64,000 nt of DNA. It comes from an uncultured Pseudomonadales bacterium. GTDB lineage: Bacteria > Patescibacteriota > Microgenomatia > UBA1400 > Chazhemtobacteraceae. A program made the translations under genes and the position numbers. Of the stretch, positions 7,606-55,212 are shown piece after piece (positions within the stretch are counted from its first letter, which is position 1; each line of letters starts with the position of its first letter). Location: contig CAZUBK010000002.1 in NCBI GenBank assembly GCA_964618725.1, positions 209,543 through 273,542 of the forward strand, given 5' to 3'. The notes beneath the pieces are model-generated. The model saw nothing but the letters and a program-made list of their open reading frames with translations, did not search any database and had not been told where the DNA came from.

Positions 7606-7685
7606 GGATTGAGAATAGCATAAAAAAGAAAGTGGGGGTCAAGTACCAATTTGTGGAGGGAAGCGGACCAAACGGATCCGCCTTT

Positions 7686-32286: not shown

Positions 32287-33654
32287 GTGCCCATGTGGGA
32301 CAAAGATCAGTTATGGCAGACAGTATCAGGAGAATTGGAAGTGGGGTTCTCGGGAGCGACTTTTAGTAGTTGGATTAAACCTTGTTTTATTATCTCATTG
32401 GCCGAGATGGATAGTGAGCGAATTTTGGTGGAGTTGGCTTGTTCGACGCCATATCATGTGCAGACTATAGACGAGAAATACTACACCCAGATAAAGAGGG
32501 CAATAGAATCTCAAACAGGAAGAAAATGTGAGTTGGCACTAGTAGTAAAACAGAAAGAGAGCGAGGGGAAGAAAAAGGAGGAGGTGGGAACGCTATTTGC
32601 TCAAGAAGAGAAGATAGATGACAGAGATCTTTTGATTGGTTGTGGACTTAATCCCAAGTTCACCTTTGATAACTTTGTGGTAGGGAGCTCGAATAATCTG
32701 GCTTACTCGGCGGCAAAGGCGGTGGTAGAGATGCCAGGAGGGAGACATAATCCACTATTTATCTACGGTGGGGTGGGGGTAGGAAAAACTCATTTAATGC
32801 ATGCTGTGGGAAGAGCAATGATGGAGAGGGGATATCCAAAAGTTAAGGCAGTTACCTCAGAGCAGTTTACAAATGAGTTTGTGGCTACACTTAGGAGTAA
32901 AATGGCGGATAGCTTTAAACAAAGATATCGAGGTGTTGATACTTTATTAATTGATGATATTCAGTTCATTGCGGGAAAGGAGCAGACCCAAGAGGAGTTT
33001 TTCCATACCTTCAATCATCTTTATGCCCAGAGTAAGCAGATAATCTTGACATCGGACAAGAAGCCACAAGAGATTACTGGATTGGAAGAGAGATTGTCGA
33101 GTCGGATGATGGGGGGACTGATGGTGGATATTGGATTACCTAACTTTGAAATGAGATTGGCGATTCTAAAACAAAAATGTAGTGAGATTAATATAGAGCC
33201 GGAGGAGGGGGCACTCGACTTAATCGCGACAAACGTGAACACCAACTCGAGAGAACTAGAAGGACTACTGATGAGACTGGTCAGCTTGGCCTCGATGGAA
33301 GGGAGTCGATTGAATCAGCGGATTGTAGAAAAAGAACTGGGAGTAAGGGGAACCAGGTTAGACAAGAGACTTAGACCACAAGAAGTGATCTCGTTGATTG
33401 CTAAACAATTTGAGTTTAAGAACAAGGATCTGGTGGGAGCAAGCAGGAAGGCAGAACTGGTCAGGGCGAGACACGTGGCAATGTATATCTTGCGAGTAGA
33501 AATGGGGCTGACACTACAACAGGTGGCATCGTTGATGGGGAGGAGTGACCATACGACGGTGCTTCATGCGGTAGACAAGGTAGAAAAGGAATTTATGATT
33601 AATTTGGAAACGAGAGAACAGGTGATGAGGGTAAAGCAGCAACTGTATCATTGA
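32287..33654 (+). CDS. dnaA: chromosomal replication initiator DnaA
   Basis: AAA+ P-loop GGVGVGKTHLMHAVG. C-terminal DNA-binding helix-turn-helix region. Confidence 0.95.
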   Translation: MPMWDKDQLWQTVSGELEVGFSGATFSSWIKPCFIISLAEMDSERILVELACSTPYHVQTIDEKYYTQIKRAIESQTGRKCELALVVKQKESEGKKKEEVGTLFAQEEKIDDRDLLIGCGLNPKFTFDNFVVGSSNNLAYSAAKAVVEMPGGRHNPLFIYGGVGVGKTHLMHAVGRAMMERGYPKVKAVTSEQFTNEFVATLRSKMADSFKQRYRGVDTLLIDDIQFIAGKEQTQEEFFHTFNHLYAQSKQIILTSDKKPQEITGLEERLSSRMMGGLMVDIGLPNFEMRLAILKQKCSEINIEPEEGALDLIATNVNTNSRELEGLLMRLVSLASMEGSRLNQRIVEKELGVRGTRLDKRLRPQEVISLIAKQFEFKNKDLVGASRKAELVRARHVAMYILRVEMGLTLQQVASLMGRSDHTTVLHAVDKVEKEFMINLETREQVMRVKQQLYH

Positions 33655-33977
33655 GAGAAGAAGTTAGGATATGGATATGGATGTGGATGAAATGGGGAGG
33701 GTGGTGGAAATGTGGGGAAACCAGAGAAATATGCACATTTAAGAGTCTTTTATACACGAGATAATCCACAGGAACTGCGGATTGTGCGGGAAGAGAAACC
33801 CGAAGAGACAAGCAGGGAAAAACTAGAATGGTTTAGCAGTAAGATGGATATATCTATTATAAATTGATTTTTAGCAAATCCATCAGGCAAGAGTTAGCTT
33901 GACTTTCAACAAATCCACAGCGACTATTATTAGGACAACAAGATTTTTTAAAAAATATAAATTTACAGAACAAAAGA
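33655..33977. promoter_or_regulatory. candidate oriC (DnaA-box cluster + AT-rich unwinding region) between dnaA and dnaN
   Basis: DnaA-box-like 9-mers TGTGGATGA (33683), TAATCCACA (33762), AAATCCATC (33875), AAATCCACA (33910). AT-rich tract at 33941-33975. Confidence 0.5.
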
Positions 33978-35075
33978 TTGAAAGTAAATGTTTTGGCGGA
34001 GAATCTAAACAGGGCAATGAGTATTACATCTCGCGTGGTGGCTAGTCGAGCTCAGTTGCCGATTTTGAGCAATGTTTTACTTAGAGCTACAAAGGAGGGA
34101 CTTCAGGTCTTGGCAACTGATTTGGAGATTGGAGTGAGGCTTTGGGTTGGTGCGAAGGTAGAAGAGGAAGGGGAAATATGTATCTCGGCTCGAGTTTTGG
34201 CGGAGTTTGTAGGGACATTGTCTTCGGGGGTGATTGAGATGGCGATTGAAAAAGAGAACTTGGTTCTGAAGGTAGAAGGATCGACGGCAAGGCTTCCGGG
34301 AGTAGACGGAGGGGAGTTTCCGGCGATACCGAGTTCTAAAAGTAAGGTGGATTTGGAACTGCCAATAGAGAGACTTGTGGAGATTGTGAACACGGTTTCT
34401 TTTGCGGCGGCGAGGGATGACAGTCGGCCAATATTCACTGGAATATTGTGGAAGTTAGAGGCAGGTAAGTTGACCTTGGCAGCGACTGATGGGTACAGGT
34501 TGAGCGTGGATGAGCTCAAGGTGGAGACGGATAAAACTGAAGCATTTGTGTTACCGGTTAGAGCATTGCAAGAGGTGGTCAAGGGAGTGGAGAAGGGAGA
34601 GAAAAAAGTGGGTTTGTATGTAGATTTAGAGAAACAACAGGTGATCTTTAAGGCAGGGGGGACAGAATGGGTGAGTCGGCTCTTGTCGGGAGAGTTCCCT
34701 CCATACAATCAGATTCTGCCGAGTGGGTTTGTAACAAAGATGACAGTGGGTAGGCTGGAATTGGGTGAAGCAGTGAAGCGGGCACTCATTTTTGCTAAGG
34801 AGAGTGCCAATATTGTGAAACTTAGTATTGGGGAAGGTAAATTGGTGGTGAGTGCAAATGGAGCAGCTGGTGGAGGAGAGACGACGATGGAGGTGGAGAT
34901 GGAGGGAGAATCAGAGACAGTGGCGTTTAATGGACGGTATGTCGTGGACTATCTGAACGTAGCAGAATCAGAAGATGTTGTCTTTGAGAGCGCAGGCCCG
35001 CTTAAGGCTGGGCTGTTTAAGATGCCAGGGAAGAAATTATTGCATGTAATCATGCCGGTTAGGGTGCAGGGTTAG
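33978..35075 (+). CDS. dnaN: DNA polymerase III beta sliding clamp
   Basis: 365 aa. N-terminal MKVNVLAENLNRAMSITSRVV...PILSNVLL is typical of DnaN. Follows dnaA. Confidence 0.92.
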   Translation: MKVNVLAENLNRAMSITSRVVASRAQLPILSNVLLRATKEGLQVLATDLEIGVRLWVGAKVEEEGEICISARVLAEFVGTLSSGVIEMAIEKENLVLKVEGSTARLPGVDGGEFPAIPSSKSKVDLELPIERLVEIVNTVSFAAARDDSRPIFTGILWKLEAGKLTLAATDGYRLSVDELKVETDKTEAFVLPVRALQEVVKGVEKGEKKVGLYVDLEKQQVIFKAGGTEWVSRLLSGEFPPYNQILPSGFVTKMTVGRLELGEAVKRALIFAKESANIVKLSIGEGKLVVSANGAAGGGETTMEVEMEGESETVAFNGRYVVDYLNVAESEDVVFESAGPLKAGLFKMPGKKLLHVIMPVRVQG

Positions 35076-38613: not shown

Positions 38614-40476
38614 TTAAACTTGGCTTTGTTCGAGCTGTCTTTGTGCTTGCTGTTCTTCTTGGCGGGCGAGAATTTCGGAGGGTTTGGTAGTGACGAGGGC
38701 GTGTTCGTCGGGCGAGGCGACAACACGCAGAGCGACGTGGTTTTGGCCGGCAAAGAAGATGCCTTCACCAACATTGGCAGCGAGAAGGAGGTGGCGTTCA
38801 CCTTGGGAGAGATAGAAGGTTTCACCAACGGAGTCGATACCGGCAGGAGACTGTTTCATGAGGAACTGAAGGGCAGAGTTGGTGACGATAGCTTTGCCGT
38901 ATTGGGAATTTAAAAAGTCTTCGGCATTTTGAGAGATGATAGTAACGCCGAGGTAGTATTTGCGGGCGCGTTTGACGAAGCCCTGGAGGACTTTGGCAGA
39001 GTCTTCGTGGCGCATAAGGTACCAAGCTTCATCGACGACGAGGAGACGTTTTTTGAGTTGTTTACGGATCTTGGTCCAGATGAAGTCGAGAATCAGGAAC
39101 ATGACGATGGGGCGGATTTCGTCAGCGAGTTCGCGGAGGGTGAAGACGGTCATGGCGGAGTCGATCTCGACATTACTTTGTTGGTCGAAAATGCCTTTGA
39201 GGGCGCCCTTGACATATTTTTCGAGGCGGGCGGCGATGCCGGAGGCTTCAGGCTCTTCCATGCCAATGAGGGCTTTGTAGAGGTCTTCCATTCGGGGGGG
39301 TTCGAGGTGGTGAGTAGAGGGATCTTGGGTAATACCTTTTTGTTGGTAAGTGAGGACGAGGGCGCGATTTAGGATGGCGTCTTCATTGGGAGAGAGGGCA
39401 CCAAGCATGATCTTGAGAAGGGATTGGAGAAAGAGATATTTGTAGCTCATTTCATCGGCGGTGGAAGTCTTGGGATCAGGTAACTGAAAGGGGTTGATTT
39501 TGTGCTCTGAGGTGACGGAGAAGGCGATATAGTTGCCGCCGACGGCGCGACACATCATTTCGTATTCGTTTTCCGGGTCGATGATGATGGCTTCGGTGCC
39601 GAACATGACGGAGCGCATGAGTTCTAATTTAACGCTGTAACTTTTACCGCTACCGCTAGTAGCGAGGACGAGCATGTTGGCGTTCTCTAATGAAAAACGG
39701 TCAAAAATGACCAAAGATTCGTTATGCTCATTGATACCATATAGGATACCTTGGTTGTCGGTGAGTTCGGAAGAAGTGAAGGGGAAGGTCGTGGAGAGGG
39801 CGGTAGTATCCATATTTCTAATAATGAGGAGACGATCTTTACAGTAAGGAAGGGTACTTTTGAAGGCGTCTTCTTGAGAGAGAGAGGCGACTTTGCTGAC
39901 GATGATGAGGGAGGCAAGAAGACTTTGAACTTGGTTGGTGATGGTTTCAAGTTCTTTAGTGGTATCGGCGGAGATGGTGATGTAGAGGGAGAACTGAAAG
40001 AAGCGCTCAATCCCTTTAACGAGTTGCTCTTGGAGGACTTTGGCGTCTTCGAGCTGGGCTTGGGTGGCGGCTTGGGGGATGCGGCCGCGTTCGATATCGG
40101 CGCCAATTTCGGCTTCCATTTCGGCGATGCGACGACGGAGCTGTTCGAGTGTGCCTTTGACCTCGACGGGGTAGACGAACATGGAGATATCTATACTGTG
40201 GTCGAAGTTGATGAGAGGGGAGAGCCAATTGGCGGAGACGTAACGGGGGTAACCGGCGACAAAGAGGGTGCGGATATATGTATTACCGATCTTGAGGAAG
40301 CTGAAGTCGACTTCAATACTAGGTGGGGCGAGGATATCCTGGATGTTGACTTCACCGGTAATATTGAGGGTAAGATCGGAAGGGGAAGTGGAGAGAGTTT
40401 GGCCTTTAGGAGGATTGTTCAGGGGGGCTGAGGGAGTGGTGTTTGTTGATGGAGTTTTTTTGAGAAAGGGCAGCAT
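38614..40476 (-). CDS. VirB4/TrbE/PrgJ-family type IV secretion ATPase (ATPase portion)
   Basis: Walker A LATSGSGKS, Walker B LLVVDEAW. N-terminal YIRTLFVAGYPRYVSANWLSPLI block typical of VirB4. Confidence 0.8.
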   Translation of the reverse strand: MLPFLKKTPSTNTTPSAPLNNPPKGQTLSTSPSDLTLNITGEVNIQDILAPPSIEVDFSFLKIGNTYIRTLFVAGYPRYVSANWLSPLINFDHSIDISMFVYPVEVKGTLEQLRRRIAEMEAEIGADIERGRIPQAATQAQLEDAKVLQEQLVKGIERFFQFSLYITISADTTKELETITNQVQSLLASLIIVSKVASLSQEDAFKSTLPYCKDRLLIIRNMDTTALSTTFPFTSSELTDNQGILYGINEHNESLVIFDRFSLENANMLVLATSGSGKSYSVKLELMRSVMFGTEAIIIDPENEYEMMCRAVGGNYIAFSVTSEHKINPFQLPDPKTSTADEMSYKYLFLQSLLKIMLGALSPNEDAILNRALVLTYQQKGITQDPSTHHLEPPRMEDLYKALIGMEEPEASGIAARLEKYVKGALKGIFDQQSNVEIDSAMTVFTLRELADEIRPIVMFLILDFIWTKIRKQLKKRLLVVDEAWYLMRHEDSAKVLQGFVKRARKYYLGVTIISQNAEDFLNSQYGKAIVTNSALQFLMKQSPAGIDSVGETFYLSQGERHLLLAANVGEGIFFAGQNHVALRVVASPDEHALVTTKPSEILARQEEQQAQRQLEQSQV

Positions 40477-41352
40477 TTAGATTTGGTTAACACTAATTGG
40501 TTGTGTCGTTGTCGCCGAGGCCAAAGGTGGGGAAGTAGGAGTAGGCGATATCGTTTTCTGGGTGGAAGTCGTTTCGTCAGGGCTGCCTGGAGCCTTAAAG
40601 ACAATATTGGTAGGTTGAGGAGGGGGAGTGGATTCTCCTGGGAGGATTTTGGAGCTGATTTGAATTGGAGTAACGACTGGAGCGACTTGGACGGCAGTAG
40701 TTTCGAATTCTTTGGGATTGACCAGGAAGGGTGGAGTAACAACATCTGGGTTGTAGATACGATAGAAGAGAGTGAGGAGCTCTTGGGTAGTTAGTTGGCG
40801 GGTTTGGAGACCCAGACGGGCAAACTGACGAATGAGGTGGTCACGGCGGGGGTAGAGGGAGATCTTGGCTTTCTCGAGGATGTAGTTGTCTTCGAAAGTA
40901 GGCTTTTGGGGAGCAGGGGCGAGGGGGTTAAAGGATTTGACAGAGAGACCAAGTTCGATAGCAGTAAAGGGGACAATGACGTAGAACTTTTTTTCCATGA
41001 CTTTGTTTTCTTTGACGAGGCTTTTGATGTAGGTGCGATATTTGATGATCTGCTCTTTGATTTTTTGAGAGCGGATGGTTTCGAGTTGGGTGTCGAGGCG
41101 TTCGACGTAGTCACTTATATCTTTTCTGGTGGAGCGAAGAAGAACCTGGACGGTGAAGGAGAGTGAGTTGAGCAGGGCGGCGTAGCCGTAGATGGTGGCG
41201 TCTTGTTCTTCCTCGGAGAGGAGGCCGAAGTTGATAGCGGAGGTCTGGAGGACGATGGCGACGGAGCCGTCTTTGAGAATGACAAGATGATCTTTAATGG
41301 TATGGATGTCGAGATGGCTTTGGGTGGTTGCCTTGATGGCTTTATCGGACAT
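40477..41352 (-). CDS. VirB4 N-terminal domain-like protein (separated from ATPase ORF by one in-frame TAA)
   Basis: LKDGSVAIVLQTSAINFGLLSEEEQDATIYGYAALLNSLSFTVQVLLRSTR resembles the VirB4 N-terminus. Pro/Thr-rich C-terminal tail. Stop at 40477-40479 is immediately followed by the ATG of the next ORF. Confidence 0.6.
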   Translation of the reverse strand: MSDKAIKATTQSHLDIHTIKDHLVILKDGSVAIVLQTSAINFGLLSEEEQDATIYGYAALLNSLSFTVQVLLRSTRKDISDYVERLDTQLETIRSQKIKEQIIKYRTYIKSLVKENKVMEKKFYVIVPFTAIELGLSVKSFNPLAPAPQKPTFEDNYILEKAKISLYPRRDHLIRQFARLGLQTRQLTTQELLTLFYRIYNPDVVTPPFLVNPKEFETTAVQVAPVVTPIQISSKILPGESTPPPQPTNIVFKAPGSPDETTSTQKTISPTPTSPPLASATTTQPISVNQI

Positions 41353-41534: not shown

Positions 41535-42494
41535 TTATGTAGTGGCTTTGATTTGGAGTGGGGGGAGGACTTGGCCTTCAAGTTTGAGATCAAAAGTGGG
41601 GAAAGTGTGACCTTCTTTGTCGGCGGCGATTTGGTAACTACCGTCGTCAAGGGGTTTGGCAAAAAGGAATTGACCGAGTTTGTTGCTCTTGGTGGCGCGT
41701 AGTGTCAGGCCATTTTGGAGGATCTCGACGATGGTGGAATCGAGAATCTTGTTGTCAATGGTTAAGGTCATCCCGATTATGGTATTGGGTGTGGTGGGTG
41801 GGTGAGGAATAGGGAGGTTGCTACTAAAGGTAGCGGAAGTTGAGAGTGGAAGAGGAGAAGTCGAGTGTTCTGTAGGAAGGGAGAAGACCGGTATGGGGGC
41901 AGGACGAGGAGAGGGAGGAAGTCGGGGGGGTTCCTGCTCGATATAGAGTGGGGTGGAGACGGGAGTGGCAACTTCTTTAGGGGCTGTGTGGAAAGAGGGA
42001 GATGGTGGGACGGTTTCTGGAATGATGGGAGTAGAGAGGGAGGAGAGAGGCGAAGGAACTAGAGGAGGAGAAACTAGGGTGACAGTAGAAGGCGGGGTGA
42101 CTGGTTTTGGTTCTGGAGCGACGACGGTAATCTGAGATGGGAGAGGGGTGACTAGAGAAGGGGGAGGTAGTGGTGGAGAAGAGAGTTTTGCGAATGGGGA
42201 AGTAGTTTTCTGCCAAGTGTAGACGGTGGGGGAATAGATGGAACGAAAAAAGGCAACGATCCATTGATCAAGAGGGCGGCCTTCGATGGGGAGAAAGGCA
42301 ATTGAGGCGCCGATGGTGACAGAGATGGCAATGGCAGGCCACTTGAGGAAGAAGGGGAGGCCGGAGGCGTAGAAGAGGAGACCAACGATGATACCACCGG
42401 CGAGTTGGAGGAATTGTTTGAGGGTCATGTCACCGACGAGACGGAATTGGTACTGGGTGACGTTTTGGGGGATGGGGTGTTGTTGAACGGGCAT
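41535..42494 (-). CDS. PrgI/VirB3-like membrane protein with Pro-rich extracellular extension
   Basis: N-terminal LKQFLQLAGGIIVGLLFYASGLPFF...AISVTIGASIAFLPIEGRPLDQW (two TM). Sits upstream of VirB4, as PrgI/VirB3 does in Gram-positive T4SS. Long P/S/T-rich C-terminus. Confidence 0.45.
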   Translation of the reverse strand: MPVQQHPIPQNVTQYQFRLVGDMTLKQFLQLAGGIIVGLLFYASGLPFFLKWPAIAISVTIGASIAFLPIEGRPLDQWIVAFFRSIYSPTVYTWQKTTSPFAKLSSPPLPPPSLVTPLPSQITVVAPEPKPVTPPSTVTLVSPPLVPSPLSSLSTPIIPETVPPSPSFHTAPKEVATPVSTPLYIEQEPPRLPPSPRPAPIPVFSLPTEHSTSPLPLSTSATFSSNLPIPHPPTTPNTIIGMTLTIDNKILDSTIVEILQNGLTLRATKSNKLGQFLFAKPLDDGSYQIAADKEGHTFPTFDLKLEGQVLPPLQIKATT

Positions 42495-43256: not shown

Positions 43257-43479
43257 ATCTGTTTTTTGATTGGTATATACATTATGTTATCACTGGTATA
43301 TACAAGATGTCAAGTTGGTGGGGAAATTGATTTTGTCTAGCCTGGAGGGGTATGGGGTGTTAAAATGGAGGGATTAAATATACCAACCTAAGGAGAAATG
43401 ATGCTTGAGATGGCTGGTATATGTTTAACTTTGATTTTTGATATAAATTTGAATTAGTTAAATATAGTAAGCTTGCCCT

Positions 43480-46103: not shown

Positions 46104-47807
46104 TTATTTTTTCCCTAAAAGACCAGCAGCAGCATCAACCGCTTTTTGTCCCGCGGCGCCATACTTTTGTGCTCCAGAGACAAAGCCGCCTAAGGGACCA
46201 CCAGCACTATCGCGAACAGCTCTTCGGCCGAGAGGTTCAGCAATATGCGTGGATGCCCATCTTTCACCACGGTAGCCTTGATTAAGGGCTTCTCCAATCG
46301 CACTACCATATTTGAAGGCAGGGACCTTTAGGGCGTCTCTGATCATATCTGCGACCTTGGGGGTAAGGAAAATAAGAGCGTAAGCCAGAAGGGAACCGAC
46401 GCCGACGGCAGAGTTGCTACCAAGTGGCCAACCTTCGGTTGAACCAGCGAAATAGGGGGGAACCCACATGTCTTCGTTGTTAATCGGAGAAGAAATGCCC
46501 ATGAAGGAGATGGCAAGCATAAACATTATGGTGATACTGGGAAAAACAGAAATATGGGCAGCAAGGTTTCTGATCCAACCAGAAAAAGATTGACTGCCAG
46601 GAAGGACATTGCCAAGAAGAATTATTGGGGAAAAGATAATACTGATGACAACAGCAGCGTAGGCTTGGATGGCCATGAAGGCAATTTTCAAAAGAACAAA
46701 GAAAAAGGCAATAATAAGAATGAGCTTAATGATGGCACCAATCGGAGTGACGGTAAACATAGCGCCATAGAGGATTGTGGGGAGACCTGTGAGAAGTGAC
46801 GCAATTGAGGAGACTCCGGCGGTAAAAAGAATCTCATAAAGGATTTGAAAACCAAGAAAGGCTCCGCCGAAAGGGGTTTGTCCGGTGATGACCTTAACTG
46901 CATAATCAGTTCCTGACTGGGTACTTAGATCTAGGGGGATATTGAGTCGGGAGAGAACTGGTTGAATTGAATCAGCGAAGGGAATCTGCATGCTAATGTC
47001 AATAATTTGGGCGCCTTGAAGAATACTGACGATGAAAGCGGGGAGGAGGAGAGAGAGGTCGATAATGAACCCAGCGATAGCATAAGAGAAAGTGATGGCG
47101 AGGAGAGTGACAACAAGTTTGGGAATGGCTAACTCAAAGTTAATAACAGTTTGGGCGTTGATTTTGGTACGAAACATTAACATAAAACCGTACAAGACGA
47201 AAATGAGAATGAACATTGTGTAGGCGATGTTACGCATGCCACTCCACGCAGGCAGAATAGGGAGAAGCTTATTAAAACCAAGACCGGCACCCGTGGCTTG
47301 AGCATAGGCGGGTTTAACTAAACGATGTTTCTCTAGGTTGTTGTTGATATGGGCAAGATAGCTGACTCCTGAGGCGGGGGGAGAAGTGATGACGGAAGTG
47401 AGCATTCGTGTTAAAGAAGGGATGGCTGAGGCATCGGCAACTCCGAGCGAAAAGGTGTCAGCAGGATTTTCGGGGATAAATTTGGTCATGAAGTCTAAAA
47501 GAACAATATCTGAAAAACCACGGAAGGCTCCTCGTTGGGTCAGACCATCTGATTGAGAGAAAGTATCAAGGGTGAAGGTATCGAAAATTGCTTGTAAGAC
47601 TGTCTTGTCTGGACATTTTCCTGAATACCAGGTTTCAAGATTCATAACATCCCCAGAACGGGAGTTGCAATAATCTTGGATATCACTAAAGGTATTAACA
47701 ACATCGGCAGCAGCTCCGGCTGGGCCTATGGCTGCAAAAGTGGGCTTGGAGGAAGAGATGAAAAGAAAAGTAGTAAAGACGAGAGTATAGAAAAGACGGC
47801 GGAGCAT
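46104..47807 (-). CDS. VirB6/TrbL-like polytopic membrane protein (candidate T4SS channel component)
   Basis: Signal peptide, ~170-aa extracytoplasmic N-domain, then 6 or more TM helices. Context next to other T4SS-like genes. Homology not verified. Confidence 0.5.
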   Translation of the reverse strand: MLRRLFYTLVFTTFLFISSSKPTFAAIGPAGAAADVVNTFSDIQDYCNSRSGDVMNLETWYSGKCPDKTVLQAIFDTFTLDTFSQSDGLTQRGAFRGFSDIVLLDFMTKFIPENPADTFSLGVADASAIPSLTRMLTSVITSPPASGVSYLAHINNNLEKHRLVKPAYAQATGAGLGFNKLLPILPAWSGMRNIAYTMFILIFVLYGFMLMFRTKINAQTVINFELAIPKLVVTLLAITFSYAIAGFIIDLSLLLPAFIVSILQGAQIIDISMQIPFADSIQPVLSRLNIPLDLSTQSGTDYAVKVITGQTPFGGAFLGFQILYEILFTAGVSSIASLLTGLPTILYGAMFTVTPIGAIIKLILIIAFFFVLLKIAFMAIQAYAAVVISIIFSPIILLGNVLPGSQSFSGWIRNLAAHISVFPSITIMFMLAISFMGISSPINNEDMWVPPYFAGSTEGWPLGSNSAVGVGSLLAYALIFLTPKVADMIRDALKVPAFKYGSAIGEALNQGYRGERWASTHIAEPLGRRAVRDSAGGPLGGFVSGAQKYGAAGQKAVDAAAGLLGKK

Positions 47808-47844: not shown

Positions 47845-50800
47845 TTAATTGCTCCAATCTATGGAGGGAAGTATTTTGGAGTAGTCGAGACCTTCATTGT
47901 TTACCTGGGTTGCCTTGTAGGCAGCATTGATTTGAGCAGGCCAATTGAAGGTGCCGGGTTGACTGTCGGTATAGGTACAGGAAAAGTCGTATTGAGGTGG
48001 CTCTCGGCGACAGGCGGCGTCGCCACAAGCAAAAATCTGAAAAAATTCGAGGATGCTGGCGCGGTCAGTGGGGGAATCGAGAGCACGACAATCGAGGTGG
48101 TTACTTTGGGTGGAGTAGGCGTATTGAAGAGAAGTAAAGCATTCAAGTTGAGCGGTTAGATTATTGTTGATTCCGCCGCCACAACCGAGGTCGTCAACGG
48201 GGTTGAACTTGGCATAGTTACTGGCCCCTGACTCTTCAATCCAGGTAGCCATGGTCATAGCCGGATCCATCCCTTTGACTTTGGCGATGCTGATGACGTA
48301 GTTGTAGCAACGACGGATGTTTTCCTCACTGGTAATGGCATTGGGAGCTTTGGGGTTCCAGACGGTTCCCCCAAGGGCAGTAATAAGGGCATCTACTGGT
48401 TTGACATTATGACCGGAAGGTTCGGGGACGCCGTCACAGAAAGCAAGAGAGGTGTTGGTAGCTGAGTCGCTTGCTTCTGGTGGAATGGAGAAGTCAGGGG
48501 GTATATATGAGGCGGAGACAAAAGAACCGAGATCTTCACAGTCTTCTGACTTGCCAGTTTGAAGGCCAGTGGGAATGAGCCAGAAGTTTCTGAGACGACA
48601 GAGGTCGGATTCGGCACGGCCGCCGAGACGTCTAACGGGAGCAGTGCTTTTATCGGTGATGCCCGCGGTGGCACGGTGTTTGAGATATTCGTCGCCGGTA
48701 ATTTCGGCGGAGAAGTAGGCGGAGGCTTGACCGAGCATGTAGGGGGTGTCGGGTTGGTCCATTGGTTCATAAGTAGCACCGGGGATGAGGCGAGAGGGAT
48801 ACTCAGGGTCTACACTTAATTTGCTGGGGAGCATTTGCGAATACAACGAAAGATTGGTACCGTCTTCGAGGGGTTCGGAGATGAGGCGATTAAGATCAGT
48901 TATTTTGGGATTATTAAAGACGGCGATAGTACGGCCGAAATTGCGGAAAAGTAGACCGCTACTGGCTTCGCCGACGGACTCGGCTTGCATGGTAGTTTTA
49001 TATCCCGAAGTATAGTAGAGGACTGCTCCGGTGAGGGGATTTTTGACGGGGCAACTTTGATCTTCTTTGATTTCTTCGGTTTTGACGGGGACGAGGAGAG
49101 ATTGATCGAGGACGTCGGGGAATTCGTCACCGGGGAGTTTGTCATATTTACGGGTGGGGAGCTTGAGAGGAAAAGTTGGAGGAGAGGAGAGGCTCATGTT
49201 TTTCTCGTCATCTAGATCGCGGCAGAGGTTGTCATAGGCCCAAATATCGACAGTTCGATCAGCGAGGGGGACAAAGACCTGGTCGGATTCAGTATTGAAG
49301 TCAAGGGTGCCATCTTGTTTGTAGGTGATACTGTAGTTATCGGCGGTGTAGAGCTTTTTCTCTCTTTCAGCCAGAAGCCAACTGGGAGAAATGGTATTTA
49401 AGATGCCGCCGACGGGATCACCAATGATGTCACGAAGGGCTTGGATGTATGGCAGGTTTTCGTTGAGGATGCCGACGGTGGTGGCAAAAGTGGTGGGATC
49501 AACGTAACGCAGGGCTAAGTAGCCGCGGACGTTGTCGAAGACAAAAGGCTGAAAGGCATCATACATAGCGCGAGTTTCTGGGTTGAGTTTGGCATATCTT
49601 TCGGCAGCGCTATTACAGACAGGGAATTTAGTTAGACACTTAGGGAGGGAATTGATTAGTTCACTGATGGTAAAGGTGGAGACGACAGGAGGGATGAGGC
49701 TTTCGTCGGTGGAGGTTACAGAACAATCGGGATTGACGATGGCGCCAGTAGAGTCAAGGATATTGACACCGTCGTAGATGAGCCATTCACCGGTGGCAGT
49801 GGGGCAGGCATTTCTAATAAGGGGGGTAATGGCGAGAGGGTGTGACGGACCGGAGGTAATAAAGGCAAGGACGGCATTGAGATCTAGGTCGCCAGTTTTT
49901 GGCTCGAGTCCGTATTCGGTGAAGACGTGAGGTTTACCAGTGGTACCAGTGATCTGTTGTTCCCAGAGCCAGGATTCGGTACCACAACGGATAGATGCAA
50001 AAGCACAGGAAGAAAGAGAATAGACGTTGTGGGCAGTGTAGTCAGCGGCTTGGTAGGCCTCCTTAGCGGTGGCGAGAAAGATGCCGGCGTCACGCTCAGG
50101 ATGAGAGGTATTCATGGGAGCGGCGGCTATTTTGAGGCCACTGAGCCCAGATTTGAAGAAGAGGAGCTGTTCTTTGTAGGTAGTACCACATTGAGCTAGG
50201 TCGCTACAGTTGTATTCTCTGAGATCATTTAGTTCATTGCCGAAGATGACAATATCGGTATTGCGAGTAAAGACGGCAGAGAGGCGAGTGGCAAAGTCTT
50301 TGAGTTGGGTGAGGTAGCCAATTTCGGTGTTTGGTTGTAGGCCGGTGATACGGATAAGGCGGACAGTAGCTTGACTGTAGAGTTGGTTGTAGCGTTGCAG
50401 GGTTCCATCATCTGAGTTGATGGCAAGTAGAAAAGTGACGGGTTTGTTGGCGGCGGCGGTGCCAAAGAAGTCAGCTGTATGACCGTAGCCAATGTTGGTG
50501 CCAGTATTGGAGGGAAGAGGCGGATTGTTGGAGTCTGTCGGGGTAGGGGTGACGCTTGGTGTGGTACCGGGTTCTGGTATATCAGCTGGATCGACAAAGG
50601 GGAAGGGAGAGTCAAAGATGGGTTCGGTGAAGGTGCGTTTGGTTTCTATGTCAACCGGACTTAAGCGATTGAAGATCTCGAGGGCACGATGGAGGAGGTT
50701 ACTGATGTCACCGGTGAGTCCACTACCGACTTTGTAGCGGTGAAACATCCAGGCTTTAGCATTCATTTGTTGTTCTTGAGTAAGGAGCCGCCAGAAAGTG

Positions 50801-51858
50801 CGAAAAGATTCTTTGGGGGTGCCATCTGTAACGAAAAGAGGTTTGTCGGCGAGACCGCTGTAGGGATAGACACGGGCAAGTTTGTCAGGTGTAATAGAGG
50901 ACTCTGCGGCGAGATCGGGACCTAGGCCGCCGAGTTGGAGGCCATTAAAATTAACGAGAAGACGGATATCGATGAACTCTTTACAGTTTGGATCATCGGG
51001 GCCGGAGGGGGTGCAATACCAACCAGTGTTGTCTCGATACGTAGAGGGTGGGGGTCCACCATTGCCGGGGGGGGCGTCGGAGGCTGCCTCTTCGGCACAA
51101 GTGTATCTTTCTAATTGGGCTTGAGGAGTAACGGCGCAAGTGAGTTGATAGTCTTCTAATTGGCTATGGACAAAAGGAACACGTTCTTTGCAGGTGCCGT
51201 TGGGTCGAGAGAGATTGCCGTCATAGGTACAACCATCTTCGGTGCCACCCGAAGCAACAGCACAGAAAGGTATGGGAGGAGGGGGATTGTCAGAAGGAGG
51301 AGGAGTGCCAGGATTATCATTGATGTCGTGACAAGAAGATGGGTCAGCGGGATTATCACAGACTTGGGCACCTCGACAGTCGACGACGTCAGGATTGGCA
51401 CAACAGGAGGCGATGGAGTTACAAACATAGTAACTTTGTCCAGGGTCGACACCTTGGCCGTTGTATTGAAAGGGTCCATTGGTGACGGTGATGACGGCAT
51501 TGTCGACTCCGTCAAAGTCGGGGGAGGTTGTACCGGTCCGAAACTCATTACCAAAACAAAAACGGTTAACCAGATTCCCACTAGCATCAAAACCTTCGGC
51601 ACAGGTGGGAATTATTTCAGTAGAGGTGCCACAAATGGGAGACTTGAGAGCGAACGCAGAAGTATAGAGACTAGGGTTACCACAGCAGATATCAAAACCT
51701 TCATAAGGAACAGAGTCGGTACAGGAGGGGCCGGTGGTGACACATTGGTTGCCTTGGGCATCGGGTCCACTACACCAACAATAGTTGGCACCTTGAGCCG
51801 AGGCTGAAGAAGGGAGGGAAAGAAAGAGAAAGAGGCTGATTAAGAAAGAGAGAAGCAT
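47845..51858 (-). CDS. giant secreted Cys-rich surface protein (1337 aa), candidate adhesin/cell-wall-active protein
   Basis: Signal peptide MLLSFLISLFLFLSLPSSASA, dense Cys clusters, P/S/T-rich linkers. Sits between the VirB6-like gene and the pilin-like array. Confidence 0.65.
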   Translation of the reverse strand: MLLSFLISLFLFLSLPSSASAQGANYCWCSGPDAQGNQCVTTGPSCTDSVPYEGFDICCGNPSLYTSAFALKSPICGTSTEIIPTCAEGFDASGNLVNRFCFGNEFRTGTTSPDFDGVDNAVITVTNGPFQYNGQGVDPGQSYYVCNSIASCCANPDVVDCRGAQVCDNPADPSSCHDINDNPGTPPPSDNPPPPIPFCAVASGGTEDGCTYDGNLSRPNGTCKERVPFVHSQLEDYQLTCAVTPQAQLERYTCAEEAASDAPPGNGGPPPSTYRDNTGWYCTPSGPDDPNCKEFIDIRLLVNFNGLQLGGLGPDLAAESSITPDKLARVYPYSGLADKPLFVTDGTPKESFRTFWRLLTQEQQMNAKAWMFHRYKVGSGLTGDISNLLHRALEIFNRLSPVDIETKRTFTEPIFDSPFPFVDPADIPEPGTTPSVTPTPTDSNNPPLPSNTGTNIGYGHTADFFGTAAANKPVTFLLAINSDDGTLQRYNQLYSQATVRLIRITGLQPNTEIGYLTQLKDFATRLSAVFTRNTDIVIFGNELNDLREYNCSDLAQCGTTYKEQLLFFKSGLSGLKIAAAPMNTSHPERDAGIFLATAKEAYQAADYTAHNVYSLSSCAFASIRCGTESWLWEQQITGTTGKPHVFTEYGLEPKTGDLDLNAVLAFITSGPSHPLAITPLIRNACPTATGEWLIYDGVNILDSTGAIVNPDCSVTSTDESLIPPVVSTFTISELINSLPKCLTKFPVCNSAAERYAKLNPETRAMYDAFQPFVFDNVRGYLALRYVDPTTFATTVGILNENLPYIQALRDIIGDPVGGILNTISPSWLLAEREKKLYTADNYSITYKQDGTLDFNTESDQVFVPLADRTVDIWAYDNLCRDLDDEKNMSLSSPPTFPLKLPTRKYDKLPGDEFPDVLDQSLLVPVKTEEIKEDQSCPVKNPLTGAVLYYTSGYKTTMQAESVGEASSGLLFRNFGRTIAVFNNPKITDLNRLISEPLEDGTNLSLYSQMLPSKLSVDPEYPSRLIPGATYEPMDQPDTPYMLGQASAYFSAEITGDEYLKHRATAGITDKSTAPVRRLGGRAESDLCRLRNFWLIPTGLQTGKSEDCEDLGSFVSASYIPPDFSIPPEASDSATNTSLAFCDGVPEPSGHNVKPVDALITALGGTVWNPKAPNAITSEENIRRCYNYVISIAKVKGMDPAMTMATWIEESGASNYAKFNPVDDLGCGGGINNNLTAQLECFTSLQYAYSTQSNHLDCRALDSPTDRASILEFFQIFACGDAACRREPPQYDFSCTYTDSQPGTFNWPAQINAAYKATQVNNEGLDYSKILPSIDWSN

Positions 51859-51902: not shown

Positions 51903-52229
51903 TTAGGGAATCTGAAATTGAAGTTCGGTAACAGGGGCGCCGGTGAAGGTTTGAATGAGGAGGAGGATGAGCCAGGCGAGACCGAGGCCAATAACGCCGA
52001 CGATGGCAAAGAGCAGAGTCTGCATGCCGGCTTGATATTCTTTGGGGTTATCGGCGCCCATGACAATTTTGGCACCGGCGAAGATGATCATGCCGATGGC
52101 GGCAATGATGATGACGGGGGTAATAATGCCAAGGAGATTGGCAATGACGCATTTAATGCCGCCAAGGGTGGCGACTTCGATACCGGCTTGGACGGTGGCA
52201 CATTGTGGGTCAGCTAGCCAATCAAACAT
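51903..52229 (-). CDS. VirB2/TrbC-pilin-like small membrane protein, paralog 1 (no signal peptide)
   Basis: Two hydrophobic helices separated by a short polar loop (GADNPKEYQAGMQT). Confidence 0.55.
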   Translation of the reverse strand: MFDWLADPQCATVQAGIEVATLGGIKCVIANLLGIITPVIIIAAIGMIIFAGAKIVMGADNPKEYQAGMQTLLFAIVGVIGLGLAWLILLLIQTFTGAPVTELQFQIP

Positions 52230-52245
52230 AGATTTTAGTCAGAAA

Positions 52246-52629
52246 CTAGAAAGGTCTTAGCTCTTGAATGGACTTAGTTGCGTCAAAGATATCGACACCG
52301 AAGAAGGCACCGATAATTCTGATGAGAGCCCAAGAAGCAGCGACAATGGCGAGACCGATGACGGCGCTAGTGATTCTCTGCTGAGCCTTTTCAGTTTTGG
52401 TTTTGTCACCACCGGAGGTTATCCACTCGACACCCCCCCAGACGAGGTAGAGAAAGACGAGGATACCGGAGATGATAAGGGCGACAGAGGCGAGAGAAGA
52501 GACTAATTTACCAAGATCGGTAATCTGGATTTGTTCTGGTTGCTCGATGCCAATGGTTTGAGCAAAGGCGGGAGTCGCGAGAGCAAGAGAAGATAAAAGA
52601 GTTGAAGTAACAGTGAGCGCTTTTTTCAT
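52246..52629 (-). CDS. VirB2/TrbC-pilin-like small membrane protein, paralog 2
   Basis: Signal peptide ending AFA-Q. Family motif WGGVEWITSGGDKTKTEKAQQRITSAVIGLAIV. Confidence 0.6.
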   Translation of the reverse strand: MKKALTVTSTLLSSLALATPAFAQTIGIEQPEQIQITDLGKLVSSLASVALIISGILVFLYLVWGGVEWITSGGDKTKTEKAQQRITSAVIGLAIVAASWALIRIIGAFFGVDIFDATKSIQELRPF

Positions 52630-52704
52630 GTTTGGTTTAGATTGCTAATTAATATGATTATTCCCTAAATGCTAATACTATGTCAATGGGGTCAGACAAG
52701 CGTG

Positions 52705-53028
52705 TTAACTAATGGGGAGAGCTTCTTCTAGGCCGAAGTAAGTGCGGACGATTAACCAGATTGCCCAGGAGGCGGCAACAATAGCGAGACCGATGACGGA
52801 GGCAGTAATGCGCTTCTGGGCGTTTTCGACGTGGGCCTTTTCTCCGCCTGAGGTAATCCACTCAATCCCCCCCCAGACGAGGTAGAGGAAGACGAGGATA
52901 CCGGAGATGACGAGGGCCACATCGACGAGACTTTTGACGAGGGGGCCAATTTCGGTAAAGCCAAAGAAGCTTTCGGCTTCGGATCTAATGTCTGTTTGCA
53001 TAAAAGTTATTATGGCGTAAATGTCCAA
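52705..53028 (-). CDS. VirB2/TrbC-pilin-like small membrane protein, paralog 3
   Basis: WGGIEWITSGGEKAHVENAQKRITASVIGLAIV. Alternative start at 53001. C8 tract at 52867-52874. Confidence 0.55.
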   Translation of the reverse strand: MDIYAIITFMQTDIRSEAESFFGFTEIGPLVKSLVDVALVISGILVFLYLVWGGIEWITSGGEKAHVENAQKRITASVIGLAIVAASWAIWLIVRTYFGLEEALPIS

Positions 53029-53348
53029 TCAATATTAAGGATATCTATCTTGAGGACTTCGGAAATAAAGGCAATGATGGCGTAGGAAGCGACGAGGACG
53101 GTGAGGCCAATGAGGGCATTGCTGATTTTTTTCTGGGAGGCTTCGACTTTGGTTTTGTCACCGCCACCAGTAATCCATTCAATGCCGCCCCAAATGAGGT
53201 AGAGGAGGAAGGTAAGGGCGCCGACGACGACGAGAGTTTTCCAAAGCTGGGCGATATAGAAGGCAAGGCCGGAACCGGCTTCACCGGGAGTAGTGAATTG
53301 AGAAAGGGCAGGATTGGTGATTTGGGCGTAGACGGGCTTGATAAACAT
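53010..53348 (-). CDS. VirB2/TrbC-pilin-like small membrane protein, paralog 4
   Basis: Start at internal ATG (MFIKPVYAQ...), 5 nt after the upstream stop. WGGIEWITGGGDKTKVEASQKKISNALIGLTVL. Confidence 0.55.
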   Translation of the reverse strand: MFIKPVYAQITNPALSQFTTPGEAGSGLAFYIAQLWKTLVVVGALTFLLYLIWGGIEWITGGGDKTKVEASQKKISNALIGLTVLVASYAIIAFISEVLKIDILNIDWTFTP

Positions 53349-53353
53349 GAGTT

Positions 53354-53704
53354 TTAGAGAAAATCGGCAGGACTTAGTAAAGGAACGTCGAGAATGGTGG
53401 CAACAATACCGGCAATGAAATAGGAGACGATGACGGCGATGAGGCCAATGGCGGCATTGGTCATTTGTTTTTGGGCGGTTTCGACTTTGCCTTTTTCTCC
53501 TCCGGAAGTAATCCAAGTGAGGGCACCGGTAAGAAAATAGAAGAGGAAGGCAATTCCGGCGGCGGCGGTGATGGCACCAACAATGACGCTAGCAAAGAGT
53601 TGGAAGTCGGTAACGGGAGTTGCGGAAACTATTTGGAATTTACCCACCCCACCAATGGGGCCAAGGGGGATAGTAGCGGCGTAAGCAGAAGGAATGATGG
53701 ACAT
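53354..53704 (-). CDS. VirB2/TrbC-pilin-like small membrane protein, paralog 5
   Basis: LTWITSGGEKGKVETAQKQMTNAAIGLIAV. Confidence 0.55.
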   Translation of the reverse strand: MSIIPSAYAATIPLGPIGGVGKFQIVSATPVTDFQLFASVIVGAITAAAGIAFLFYFLTGALTWITSGGEKGKVETAQKQMTNAAIGLIAVIVSYFIAGIVATILDVPLLSPADFL

Positions 53705-53716
53705 ATTTATATTGTA

Positions 53717-54115
53717 CTATAGCGTTTCGATGTTGGGACTCAAAATAAAAGTGGCGTCGCCAAAGAAAAGATAACCGATGATGCCGGCAATAATGAAGGA
53801 GACAGTGATGATGCCAAGACCGATGACTGTGTGCATGAATTTCTGGTTAGCCTCAGCAATTTTTTTGGCGTCACCGGCGGCGGTGATGTAGCCAAGACCG
53901 CCAAAGAGGAACTGAAAAAGAGACCAGACGCCGGCGATGGCAATGAGAAGGCGGATGACGTTGGTGAAGAACTTAGAACCGATATCAGCGGTATTAACAA
54001 TTACATTGGTAGGTGGATTGAGGACGCCGATTGGGTTGGGGGCAGCTAAGGCAGTTAGGGGCAAGAAAAAAAGAAGGAATAATAAAGAGGTGGAGATAAA
54101 GGTTGTTTTTTTCAT
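53717..54115 (-). CDS. VirB2/TrbC-pilin-like small membrane protein, paralog 6
   Basis: Start at MKKTTF (ATG 54113-54115) with Sec signal peptide. GGLGYITAAGDAKKIAEANQKFMHTVIGLGII. Confidence 0.55.
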   Translation of the reverse strand: MKKTTFISTSLLFLLFFLPLTALAAPNPIGVLNPPTNVIVNTADIGSKFFTNVIRLLIAIAGVWSLFQFLFGGLGYITAAGDAKKIAEANQKFMHTVIGLGIITVSFIIAGIIGYLFFGDATFILSPNIETL

Positions 54116-54119
54116 TTGA

Positions 54120-54476
54120 TTAGAATAGCCCACCACCGCCTACCTGGAAAAGGATACGGGTAATCCAGAAGGCAAGGACGGAAAGACCTAAGCCTATTAA
54201 AGCATAGTTTAGTGTATTAGCAGCATTTTGGGTCTCTTTGGCGTTGCCAGCAGAAGCAACAAAGCGGAAACCAGCTAGGAGGGCAACAAAAAAAGCAGCG
54301 ATGCCAGTGAAGACGGGGATGTTACTGATGATGGGTTGGAGGAAACCGGCCAAAGTGATAGTTGATCCAAGGAGACTGGCGGGGGTGAAGTATTGATTAA
54401 GATTCTGAGCATAAGCGGGAGAGATGAGAAAGAGTAAGGAGATAAAAGTAAAGATAATAGAGAGAAGTAGCTTCAT
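54120..54476 (-). CDS. VirB2/TrbC-pilin-like small membrane protein, paralog 7
   Basis: Start at MKLLLS (ATG 54474-54476), signal peptide ending AYA-Q. FVASAGNAKETQNAANTLNYALIGLGL. Confidence 0.55.
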   Translation of the reverse strand: MKLLLSIIFTFISLLFLISPAYAQNLNQYFTPASLLGSTITLAGFLQPIISNIPVFTGIAAFFVALLAGFRFVASAGNAKETQNAANTLNYALIGLGLSVLAFWITRILFQVGGGGLF

Positions 54477-54483
54477 AAGTATT

Positions 54484-54807
54484 TTAGAAAGGGGCGGTAG
54501 CGCCGAGGCCAATAATTGTTAGAACGAGGCGAATGATGACGAAGCTAGTGAAAGTGATGACTAGGCCAATAAGGCTGGTGATGATGCGGGAAGTGATTTT
54601 GCTGATTTTGTCGGGGCTACCCTCGGCGAAGACGTAGCCGATGGCGGCGAGGCTCAAATTGGCAAAGAAGGCAAGACCAACAAAAAAGAAGGCAAGGTTG
54701 ACAATGCTGAATGGGCCACGAGTTAGAAGGTCAGAGATATTGGAGCCAACGGGAAAGCTTGAGTTGGCGGGATTGGTGATATTCTGGATGACTTCTGATG
54801 CTTTCAT
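54484..54807 (-). CDS. VirB2/TrbC-pilin-like small membrane protein, paralog 8 (no signal peptide)
   Basis: YVFAEGSPDKISKITSRIITSLIGLVI. Two hydrophobic helices. Confidence 0.5.
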   Translation of the reverse strand: MKASEVIQNITNPANSSFPVGSNISDLLTRGPFSIVNLAFFFVGLAFFANLSLAAIGYVFAEGSPDKISKITSRIITSLIGLVITFTSFVIIRLVLTIIGLGATAPF

Positions 54808-54813
54808 TTGTGT

Positions 54814-55212
54814 TTAGAATCCGGGGATGTTGAGAATCTGGACGCCGAGGAGGTTAAGGAGGACGACGGACATGATTATAAATAATAGACCAGAAATAGC
54901 GGCAGTAATAGTCTGTTGAGCAGCTTTGATCTTGTCGGGCATGCCAGCGGAGGTAGTGAGGACATAAAAGCCATAGAGAATAAGGAGGAGGGCGATGCCG
55001 CCACCAATGCCCAGACTAAGGGTGAGGACATTACTGACAAAGTCTTGTCCACCATTGTCGACACTAATACAGCCAAGGGCAGTATTGATAGTATTAGTGT
55101 TGCCATTACAGACTATTTCTGTAGTTTCACCAACGGCATGCACAAAAGAAGCTTGTGAAAGGAAAGCTATAGAGGAGAGAAAAAAGGTGGTGGGTCGGAT
55201 GATACGCGGCAT
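54814..55212 (-). CDS. VirB2/TrbC-pilin-like small membrane protein, paralog 9
   Basis: Signal peptide ending VHA-V. Two Cys in the mature N-terminus. TTSAGMPDKIKAAQQTITAAISGLLFI. Confidence 0.55.
   Translation of the reverse strand: MPRIIRPTTFFLSSIAFLSQASFVHAVGETTEIVCNGNTNTINTALGCISVDNGGQDFVSNVLTLSLGIGGGIALLLILYGFYVLTTSAGMPDKIKAAQQTITAAISGLLFIIMSVVLLNLLGVQILNIPGF

Follow-up and report, generated by a model that had tools for sequence, protein, structure and literature searches.

Tandem arrays of VirB2-like pilin genes are the most unusual trait of the type IV secretion systems (T4SSs) of Patescibacteria. A survey by Quinonero-Coronel et al. 2025 (PMC12102498) counts 441 VirB2 arrays with 2 to 11 genes, enriched in Microgenomatia, in 383 of 3,035 Patescibacteria assemblies searched with profiles that include PF18895 and PF04956, with a within-array identity of 25% on average and 54% at most. 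Here we describe an array of nine such genes at positions 51903-55212, on the minus strand of a 64-kb stretch of contig CAZUBK010000002.1 (assembly GCA_964618725.1), referred to below as the window. The array is a further instance of the published kind. A sequence-only reading of the window had regarded a multi-pilin array as unprecedented, a view that does not survive the 2- to 11-gene arrays given in the survey, nor the finding that nine genes are the norm among the relatives fetched. With a probability of roughly 0.7, we read the locus as the pilin module of a Patescibacteria T4SS, in which nine ancient VirB2-like (PF18895) paralogues would act as non-redundant subunits of a pilus or channel assembled by VirB4. 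What appears to be new, and is a modest addition, is that the nine genes correspond, in Microgenomatia, to nine orthogroups in a fixed, collinear order, accompanied by a conserved cysteine-rich partner and a candidate divergent VirB6; positional orthogroups go unreported in the part of the survey that was available.

The survey also describes Patescibacteria T4SS genes as lying close to dnaA and dnaN and mostly lacking relaxases, and VirB6 as scarce in Microgenomatia, “suggesting extreme sequence divergence”. It reads pilin variability as a possible host adaptation and raises antigenic variation speculatively (PMC12102498). The T4SS is essential in Southlakia, the sole Patescibacteria species tested (PMC10633639), where transposon sequencing (Tn-seq) by Wang et al. 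2023 found the pilin series of Candidatus Southlakia epibionticum (cluster SEML1_0006-0019) to be essential. This system has no recognisable coupling protein or relaxase (PMC10633639; PMC12857230), and a 2025 review counts six divergent VirB2-like pilins in Southlakia and calls a pilus an “intriguing possibility” (PMC12857230). The extracellular filaments solved for Candidatus Mycosynbacter, a cultured member of the candidate phyla radiation (CPR), are unrelated Pam pili with an immunoglobulin fold.

Layout of the pilin array

Nine consecutive open reading frames (ORFs), all on the minus strand and named w1 to w9 in transcription order, fill exactly the span that the sequence-only reading had given for nine minus-strand genes. 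Their products are 98 to 132 amino acids (aa) long. The array was read on the reverse strand and the gene starts were refined by reading the sequence, which moved the starts of w3 (54476), w4 (54115), w6 (53348), and w7 (53001) to an in-frame ATG. The resulting 98-aa form of w7 is also a database entry (P0115), and an alternative longer ORF for w6, starting from TTG, would overlap w5.

The junctions measure 4 to 16 nucleotides (nt), in agreement with the short junctions noted earlier, with the exception of an overlooked 75-nt gap (52630-52704) ahead of w8. A promoter-like site, TTGACA-18-AATAAT (52657..52686, minus strand), lies within this gap upstream of w8; it agrees with 11 of 12 consensus positions and is the best sigma-70-like match of the region, as a match to the consensus alone. 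Transcription of w8, the most conserved paralogue, may start from this site as an internal promoter.

In a Logan assembly of the same sequence (L001, positions 6600-10300), the public gene calls have one of the nine pilin genes on the correct strand, the others being displaced by spurious ORFs on the opposite strand.

Family assignment, topology, and predicted fold

The top Pfam match for all nine proteins is PF18895 (T4SS_pilin). Its curated gathering score of 26.6 bits is passed by w7, w8, and w9; w1 to w6 reach 16.3 to 25.8 bits (E values of 1e-5 to 1e-2). A hidden Markov model (HMM) of our own, built from the nine proteins and iterated on related loci, picks out just the nine in the window and nothing besides (E values of 2e-34 to 7e-16), which places their match as one family far beyond chance. 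A database search with w8 gave 243 homologues at an E value of at most 0.001, and PF18895 was present on 120 of 120 among the matches listed.

The canonical TrbC/VirB2 family (PF04956) matches four of the nine paralogues at E values of 0.0036 to 0.1, the best being w8 with 17.9 bits against a cut-off of 27.9 bits, and none of the other five. Three tested paralogues match NF045849 (NCBIfam, Mbov_0395 family) at E values of 8e-6 to 2.5e-4, with 20 to 25 bits against a 40-bit cut-off. No holin, lysin, or bacteriocin family was detected in these scans. Judged by these profile scores, membership in PF18895 is supported and membership in the canonical TrbC/VirB2 family is not demonstrated; the resemblance to T4SS pilins proposed from the sequence is thus confirmed through PF18895, with a weak, sub-threshold likeness to TrbC/VirB2.

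Each of the nine paralogues has two strong hydrophobic 19-aa segments, as anticipated, corresponding to transmembrane helices. The expectation that most of them carry a Sec signal peptide turned out too generous, the canonical form with a basic n-region, an h-region, and an AxA site being present in four of nine. These are w1 (54814..55212; 132 aa; cleavage site …SFVHA-VGE; PF18895 21.8 bits, E value of 2e-4; own HMM E value of 7e-18), with a cysteine in its N-terminal ectodomain and transmembrane helices at residues 62-80 and 109-127; w3 (54120..54476; 118 aa; …SPAYA-QN; 21.3 bits; own HMM 3e-18) and w4 (53717..54115; 132 aa; …LTALA-AP; 22.6 bits; own HMM 1e-23), each with two transmembrane helices; and w8 (52246..52629; 127 aa; …TPAFA-QT; 38.8 bits; own HMM 2e-34). 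Two further proteins keep only a short “xAYA-A/Q” remnant following the start codon, namely w5 (53354..53704; 116 aa; vestigial “SAYA-A” N-terminus, two transmembrane helices; 25.8 bits; own HMM 2e-24) and w6 (53010..53348; 112 aa; vestigial “KPVYA-Q”; 22.6 bits; own HMM 2e-28). The remaining three begin with a short acidic N-terminal tail without a leader: w2 (54484..54807; 107 aa; 16.3 bits, E value of 0.011; own HMM 2e-17), with transmembrane helices at residues 38-56 and 80-98, w7 (52705..53001; 98 aa; 36.2 bits), and w9 (51903..52229; 108 aa; 31.5 bits), which is the most divergent paralogue.

The loop between the helices, W-I-T-S-G-G-D/E-K, had been described as conserved in all nine proteins. 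It is complete in w5 to w8, with the full WITSGGEKGK in w5, and degenerate in w1 to w4 and w9. Apart from the start methionine, a single glycine (within I-G-L) is invariant across the nine. The paralogues are mostly 22 to 40% identical; among w6, w7, and w8 the identity rises to 39 to 61%, with 57 to 61% between w7 and w8.

The AlphaFold2 model of w8, calculated from a 60-sequence alignment, is a hairpin of helices 38-71 and 76-110, with a block-mean predicted local distance difference test (pLDDT) score of 87 to 98 over residues 41 to 110. The prediction for each product is a small helical hairpin, its two transmembrane helices joined by a short lysine-rich loop. A search of PDB sequences with the pilin profile gave nothing relevant.

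A fixed set of nine orthogroups in related loci

Relatives of the locus were found by a genome scan with w8 orthologues; 84 loci were fetched and their pilins were called with the iterated HMM. Their labels include Collierbacteria, Woesebacteria, Microgenomates, and similar names. Full flanks are present in 45 related loci, every one of which contains 6 to 10 pilin paralogues, nine being the mode (28/45). The window paralogues find their best match at their own rank in 22 to 37 of the 38 nine-gene loci, with a rank-1 orthologue of w1 and a rank-9 orthologue of w9 in 37 of the 38 each. For w7, the best matches fall partly at rank 7 and partly at rank 8, in keeping with its similarity to w8.

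In an all-against-all comparison covering the 351 pilins of 39 nine-gene arrays, the best match in another genome lies at the same rank for 329 pilins (94%), and the median score is 97 bits between pilins of the same rank in other genomes versus 40 bits between different ranks of the same genome. The ranks also carry conserved signatures of their own, for example “TAlGCI” in rank 1 and two cysteines in rank 9 (consensus W…C…C), the latter corresponding to two cysteines in the N-terminal region of w9. Rank 8 is the best conserved, the median orthologue identity of w8 being 57%. Within the pilins, the N- and C-terminal parts vary most and the loop is conserved.

The closest complete orthologous arrays share at most about 65% protein identity and their synonymous sites are saturated; protein identity relative to the neighbouring genes was therefore used in place of the ratio of nonsynonymous to synonymous substitution rates (dN/dS). 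Pilin orthologues are 36 to 57% identical, within the range of the neighbours (SmpB 47%, SpoIID 56%, VirB4 70%, the polytopic membrane protein described below 32%, and the giant cysteine-rich protein 28%). Since this places them between the housekeeping neighbours and the surface proteins, the pilins evolve at ordinary rates. At the DNA level, the pilin copies are 64 to 75% similar, and long identical tracts, inverted repeats, and silent cassettes are all absent from the array.

The same-rank orthology, the ordinary identity, and the lack of recombination substrates argue against recent amplification, gene conversion, and antigenic variation. These comparisons favour nine old, non-redundant subunits as opposed to a product of recent amplification or gene conversion. 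The fixed set of nine orthogroups thereby makes a defined multi-subunit assembly the better hypothesis than antigenic or host-range variation.

The nine-gene relatives are mostly split 2 + 7 by an insert, with a median stop-to-stop distance of about 2.4 kb, whereas the window array is unbroken. Two of the inserts, in the syntenic relative L002 (5338-10834) and in L003, contain undecaprenyl/polyprenyl synthase (prenyltransferase) genes.

Our results also suggest that HMM- and annotation-based surveys under-count pilin arrays. Published counts are likely underestimates because genes are miscalled, as in the public calls mentioned above, and because Pfam scores fall below threshold. Moreover, the iterated HMM finds an array in every related locus, compared with 383 of 3,035 assemblies in the survey (PMC12102498), so that arrays have possibly been under-counted.

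The T4SS locus around the array

The T4SS setting proposed from the sequence is borne out by VirB4, a TrsD-like protein, and PrgI at the locus. The VirB4-family ATPase (38614..40476, minus strand; 620 aa) is encoded on the strand of the array, 11.4 kb downstream, and matches NF045971 (CD1110 family) with 367 bits against a cut-off of 325; its Pfam domains are P-loop_TraG, AAA_10, and CagE_TrbE_VirB. Next to it lies the TrsD-like gene (40477..41352, minus strand; 291 aa), whose product matches NCBIfam TrsD at an E value of 2.4e-6 and VirB4 N-terminal regions at 4e-8, both below curated cut-offs. The VirB4 function is split over these two abutting genes, the TrsD-like protein corresponding to the N-terminal part of the VirB4 models and the 620-aa ATPase covering only the C-terminal two-thirds, in line with the prevalence of TrsD reported for Patescibacteria. 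Also between virB4 and the array are the genes for a PrgI/VirB3-like protein (41535..42494, minus strand; 319 aa; PF12666 PrgI with 34.4 bits against a cut-off of 27) and for the polytopic membrane protein.

The dnaA and dnaN genes (32287..35075, plus strand; Bac_DnaA with 215 bits and three DNA_pol3_beta domains) are 3.5 kb from virB4, and yidC lies at 30526-31284. On its other flank the array is bordered by SpoIID and smpB. The relative L002 has the same architecture, with the pilins linked to virB4. The Pfam scan of 30 window ORFs, a set that leaves out shorter ORFs and some of at least 150 aa, gave no relaxase, and neither VirB5 nor VirB7-11 were detected among the ORFs scanned. The locus is a chromosomal, dnaA-proximal, Gram-positive-type T4SS in a Patescibacteria genome that is Microgenomatia-like, judged by its relatives.

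Further features of the window were recorded alongside. A 1077-aa protein (7686-10919, minus strand), encoded 28 kb from virB4, is a type IV coupling protein (T4CP)-like ATPase fused to S1 RNA-binding and NUDIX domains; it has a HerA/DUF87 P-loop, a TrwB_AAD_bind match of 21.2 bits against a cut-off of 20.5, and a TraG-D_C domain. Directly downstream of virB4, a 978-aa protein (35635-38571, minus strand) has two transmembrane helices near residues 675-771, a domain resembling the C-terminal domain of ribosomal L25/TL5 at residues 82-164 (34.8 bits against a cut-off of 27), and a weak DUF6861 match; none of the related loci fetched has a homologue. The genes of PrgI and the polytopic protein are separated by a variable insert (42557-46065) with a PIN-domain gene (42557-43072, minus strand) and a gene for an 861-aa cytoplasmic protein (43480-46065, plus strand), which has no Pfam match and no homologue in the 84 related loci. 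In L002, the one relative inspected here, the slot is taken by a 753-aa opposite-strand gene. The insert may be a lineage-specific cargo or effector.

The base composition of the window is extremely asymmetric, with 19400 G versus 10215 C on the plus strand of positions 1-64000 (GC skew +0.31). At third codon positions, the plus-strand skew is +0.43 to +0.76 for nearly all genes in either orientation, with a few down to +0.14. The skew keeps its sign across dnaA, and the C-rich strand carries the majority of genes. The bias recurs in related Microgenomatia loci, with a median of -0.21 when the pilin-coding strand is taken as plus.

The giant cysteine-rich protein and the polytopic membrane protein

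Directly after the array follows a gene for a secreted 1337-aa protein with a signal peptide and 42 cysteines (47845..51858, minus strand). In 48 other related loci, a large ORF likewise follows the last pilin gene, most of the products having about 20 to 40 cysteines and a few 0 to 6, and BLASTP identifies an orthologue of the 1337-aa protein in 36 loci. The protein has no Pfam or NCBIfam match, its C-terminal region yields none even at a Pfam E value of up to 10, and its C-terminal domain has no sequence match in the PDB.

The C-terminus (47845-48390) is formed by a module of about 90 to 120 aa with the motif “C-Y…P-A-x-x-x-x-W-L-N/E-E-S-G/N-A…F-G”. The L002 orthologue differs in having an SLT_3 domain, which is lysozyme-like (27.3 bits, cut-off 27), and iterative HMM searches and hhalign gave no link between the two. 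The module also occurs in L009, L016, L029, L011, L012, P0124, and P0125, and it behaves as a mobile module, since it is C-terminal in some giant orthologues and internal in others. The AlphaFold2 model of the module, based on a three-sequence alignment, has a pLDDT of 42 and is unusable. The “W-L-N/E-E-S-G/N-A” motif resembles a transglycosylase catalytic motif; a lysozyme-like reading of the module is only a guess. The role as a tip adhesin that had been suggested for the giant protein is unproven, one orthologue carrying SLT_3 instead.

The next gene encodes a 567-aa polytopic membrane protein (46104..47807, minus strand) with a signal peptide, an ectodomain of about 190 aa, and about seven transmembrane helices. 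An orthologue is present at the matching position in 59 related loci. The protein itself has no significant Pfam, NCBIfam, or PDB (sequence or profile) match, and one of 39 orthologues gives a sub-threshold TrbL_4 match (E value of 7e-4). From its topology and synteny, it is a reasonable candidate for a divergent VirB6/PrgH equivalent of Microgenomatia, the VirB6-like label of the sequence-only reading being unproven.

Within residues 150 to 250, approximately (47100-47400), the motif “KPAYAQ” precedes the first transmembrane hairpin of this protein. The same motif is seen at pilin cleavage sites, and the sequence after it aligns in register with the pilin hairpin. Weak TrbC/VirB2 matches were found in 3 of the 39 orthologues (best E value of 0.0013), and the hhalign comparison of the pilin-like hairpin was not significant (P = 0.0076, probability 5%). 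The likeness may reflect a pilin-like module embedded in the protein, or chance similarity of transmembrane segments.

Proposed assembly and alternative explanations

Taking canonical VirB2/TraA biology as a guide, we infer how the observed family identity, topology, T4SS linkage, and orthogroups could work together. The four pilins with signal peptides, w1, w3, w4, and w8, would enter the membrane via Sec, and the short acidic N-terminal tails of the others would cross by YidC-type insertion, leaving the basic lysine-rich loop on the cytoplasmic side. The VirB4 ATPase would then pull the hairpins out of the membrane, and these would polymerise, with a polytopic VirB6-type protein as their platform, to give a short pilus, stalk, or conduit that traverses the cell wall toward the host bacterium. 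One subunit would be abundant and form the body, with w8 as the best candidate, since it is the most conserved paralogue and has its own promoter-like site in the only long gap; the rest would be minor, initiating, tip, or adaptor subunits. Such non-redundant roles are suggested because each of the nine persists as a separate orthologue at a fixed position. The substrate would more likely be protein or host-derived material than conjugative DNA, because no relaxase was found in the window ORFs scanned and the literature reports likewise. The locus thus offers concrete candidates for a major subunit (w8), a conserved cysteine-rich partner, and a divergent VirB6.

A bolder version, which we put forward as tentative and would sooner doubt than accept, has the subunits assemble in order into an obligately heteromeric T4SS filament or stalk, in which w8 would be the major and the other eight the minor subunits, the cysteine-containing w1 and w9 would form the tip, the base, or an adaptor for the giant protein and the platform, and the 567-aa protein would be the missing VirB6. 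If true, Microgenomatia would tap their bacterial hosts with a T4SS pilus that follows a major/minor-pilin logic, the first of its kind.

Several observations weigh against a pilin module of this kind. Of the nine proteins, six stay under the Pfam gathering score and all nine under the threshold of canonical TrbC/VirB2. The Foldseek search with the w8 model against the PDB returned nothing at an E value of at most 0.001; the best match, at 1.4, and those around it are generic helical hairpins, among which the Aeropyrum pernix conjugation pilus (PDB ID 8dfu) appears at rank 19 with an E value of 3.4 and template modelling scores (TM-scores) of 0.47/0.67, and the helical hairpin is itself a non-specific fold. 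A VirB2-type filament has been observed in no Patescibacteria. The VirB6-type platform is read from topology and synteny alone, and the assignment of major and minor subunits from conservation and one consensus promoter match.

Among the alternatives, the one that survives best, though it is unlikely, is that the hairpins never form a filament and instead build a hetero-oligomeric ring or the lining of the T4SS translocon, as a membrane-embedded channel or stator akin to small membrane proteins of conjugation systems in Gram-positive bacteria. Gram-positive-type systems of the mating-pair formation class FATA (MPF-FATA) are generally pilus-free (PMC10633639; PMC12102498), which would suit such a channel, as would the filament so far unseen in CPR bacteria. 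Five of the nine proteins have no canonical cleavable signal peptide, the fixed set of nine suits a complex of defined stoichiometry, and there is the weak likeness to the “pilin-like conjugal transfer protein” (NF045849) of mycoplasma integrative and conjugative elements (ICEs). Mycoplasmas are wall-less, and a wall-spanning pilus is not expected there. However, the family-level homology of the array proteins is to pilins (PF18895, and weakly TrbC), and canonical VirB2 is also membrane-resident before extraction, so that residence in the membrane does not discriminate between a channel and a pilus. Published views also lean to a pilus-like structure, as a possibility only (PMC12857230).

Antigenic or host-range variation, with interchangeable pilin variants expressed alternately or together and evading recognition or matching host strains, along the lines proposed for the VirB2 paralogues of Bartonella and Anaplasma, is less probable still. 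The high divergence of the paralogues (mostly 22 to 40% identity) would fit it, as would the conserved loop and the greatest variability in the N- and C-terminal parts, the portions exposed on the outside of known conjugative pili, and the idea is raised in the literature (PMC12102498). The same nine orthogroups are nevertheless found in the same order in Collierbacteria, Woesebacteria, and other Microgenomatia (94% at the same rank), every rank has conserved residues of its own, and the rates of evolution are ordinary compared with those of the neighbouring genes. In addition, the array offers no long identical DNA tracts, inverted repeats, or silent cassettes for recombination, and the Southlakia pilin series is essential (PMC10633639). 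The sequence-only reading had proposed antigenic or functional diversification; the antigenic half is contradicted by these observations and we do not read the pilins as interchangeable antigenic variants, whereas functional diversification of the nine is plausible.

The idea that the array encodes unrelated small membrane proteins, such as holins or bacteriocin/immunity peptides, beside a T4SS by coincidence draws on the generic nature of small proteins with two transmembrane helices, the non-specific Foldseek result, and marginal matches to several unrelated Pfam families, but is effectively excluded by the family assignment (PF18895 as the top match for all nine, with no holin, lysin, or bacteriocin family detected in Pfam and NCBIfam scans) and by the conserved synteny with the cysteine-rich protein, the polytopic protein, and VirB4 wherever the flanks of related loci reach.

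Comparison with known systems

The pilin module of the window is closest to the VirB2-like arrays described in Patescibacteria (PMC10633639; PMC12102498). It shares with them the PF18895 family, a gene number within the range of 2 to 11, a low paralogue identity (22 to 61% here, compared with the published mean of 25% and maximum of 54%), the nearby virB4, trsD, prgI, and dnaA, and a relaxase not found close by; Microgenomatia are, according to the survey, one of the two classes richest in arrays. Unlike the arrays of most relatives, in which two pilin genes are followed by the insert of about 2.4 kb, with prenyltransferase genes in L002 and L003, and then by seven pilin genes, the nine genes of the window are uninterrupted. 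As in the MPF-FATA-derived T4SS of the Patescibacteria clade, VirB4 is of the monoderm type (CD1110), a TrsD-like gene and PrgI lie near virB4, and the locus is dnaA-proximal.

The likeness to the Mbov_0395 family (NF045849) of mycoplasma ICEs lies in the small size, the two transmembrane helices, and the monoderm setting of MPF-FATA type; with 20 to 25 bits against the 40-bit cut-off, the array proteins are non-members. The canonical TrbC/VirB2/TraA pilins (PF04956), as in the Agrobacterium T-pilus, F, and RP4, are likewise made as small propilins in which a short basic loop joins two hydrophobic helices and a long signal peptide is optional, and have a VirB4 ATPase gene beside them. These systems have a single pilin gene, belong to diderms, and include VirB5 and VirB7-10, and some of their pilins are cyclised or lipid-binding. 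The window array, in contrast, has nine genes in a monoderm-type system, scores below the PF04956 threshold, and has a non-specific structural match.

The virB2 clusters of Anaplasma phagocytophilum and Bartonella resemble the array in that a T4SS locus contains several virB2 genes, in tandem and divergent from one another. They are regarded as lineage-specific amplifications that aid immune evasion, as cited in the survey (PMC12102498), whereas the paralogues of the window are ancient, collinear across genomes, and evolving at ordinary rates, a pattern different from lineage-specific amplification. The host here would be a bacterium, and there would therefore be no adaptive immunity for the pilins to evade.

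A last comparison, by analogy only, is with type IV pili and type II pseudopili. These have no homology to the array proteins: their subunits consist of one N-terminal transmembrane helix and a globular head, they have a prepilin peptidase site, and they use another ATPase family. What they have in common with the array is a fixed, ordered operon of divergent paralogues of one small membrane-anchored subunit; in them, one pilin is abundant, and priming or capping the fibre falls to the others.

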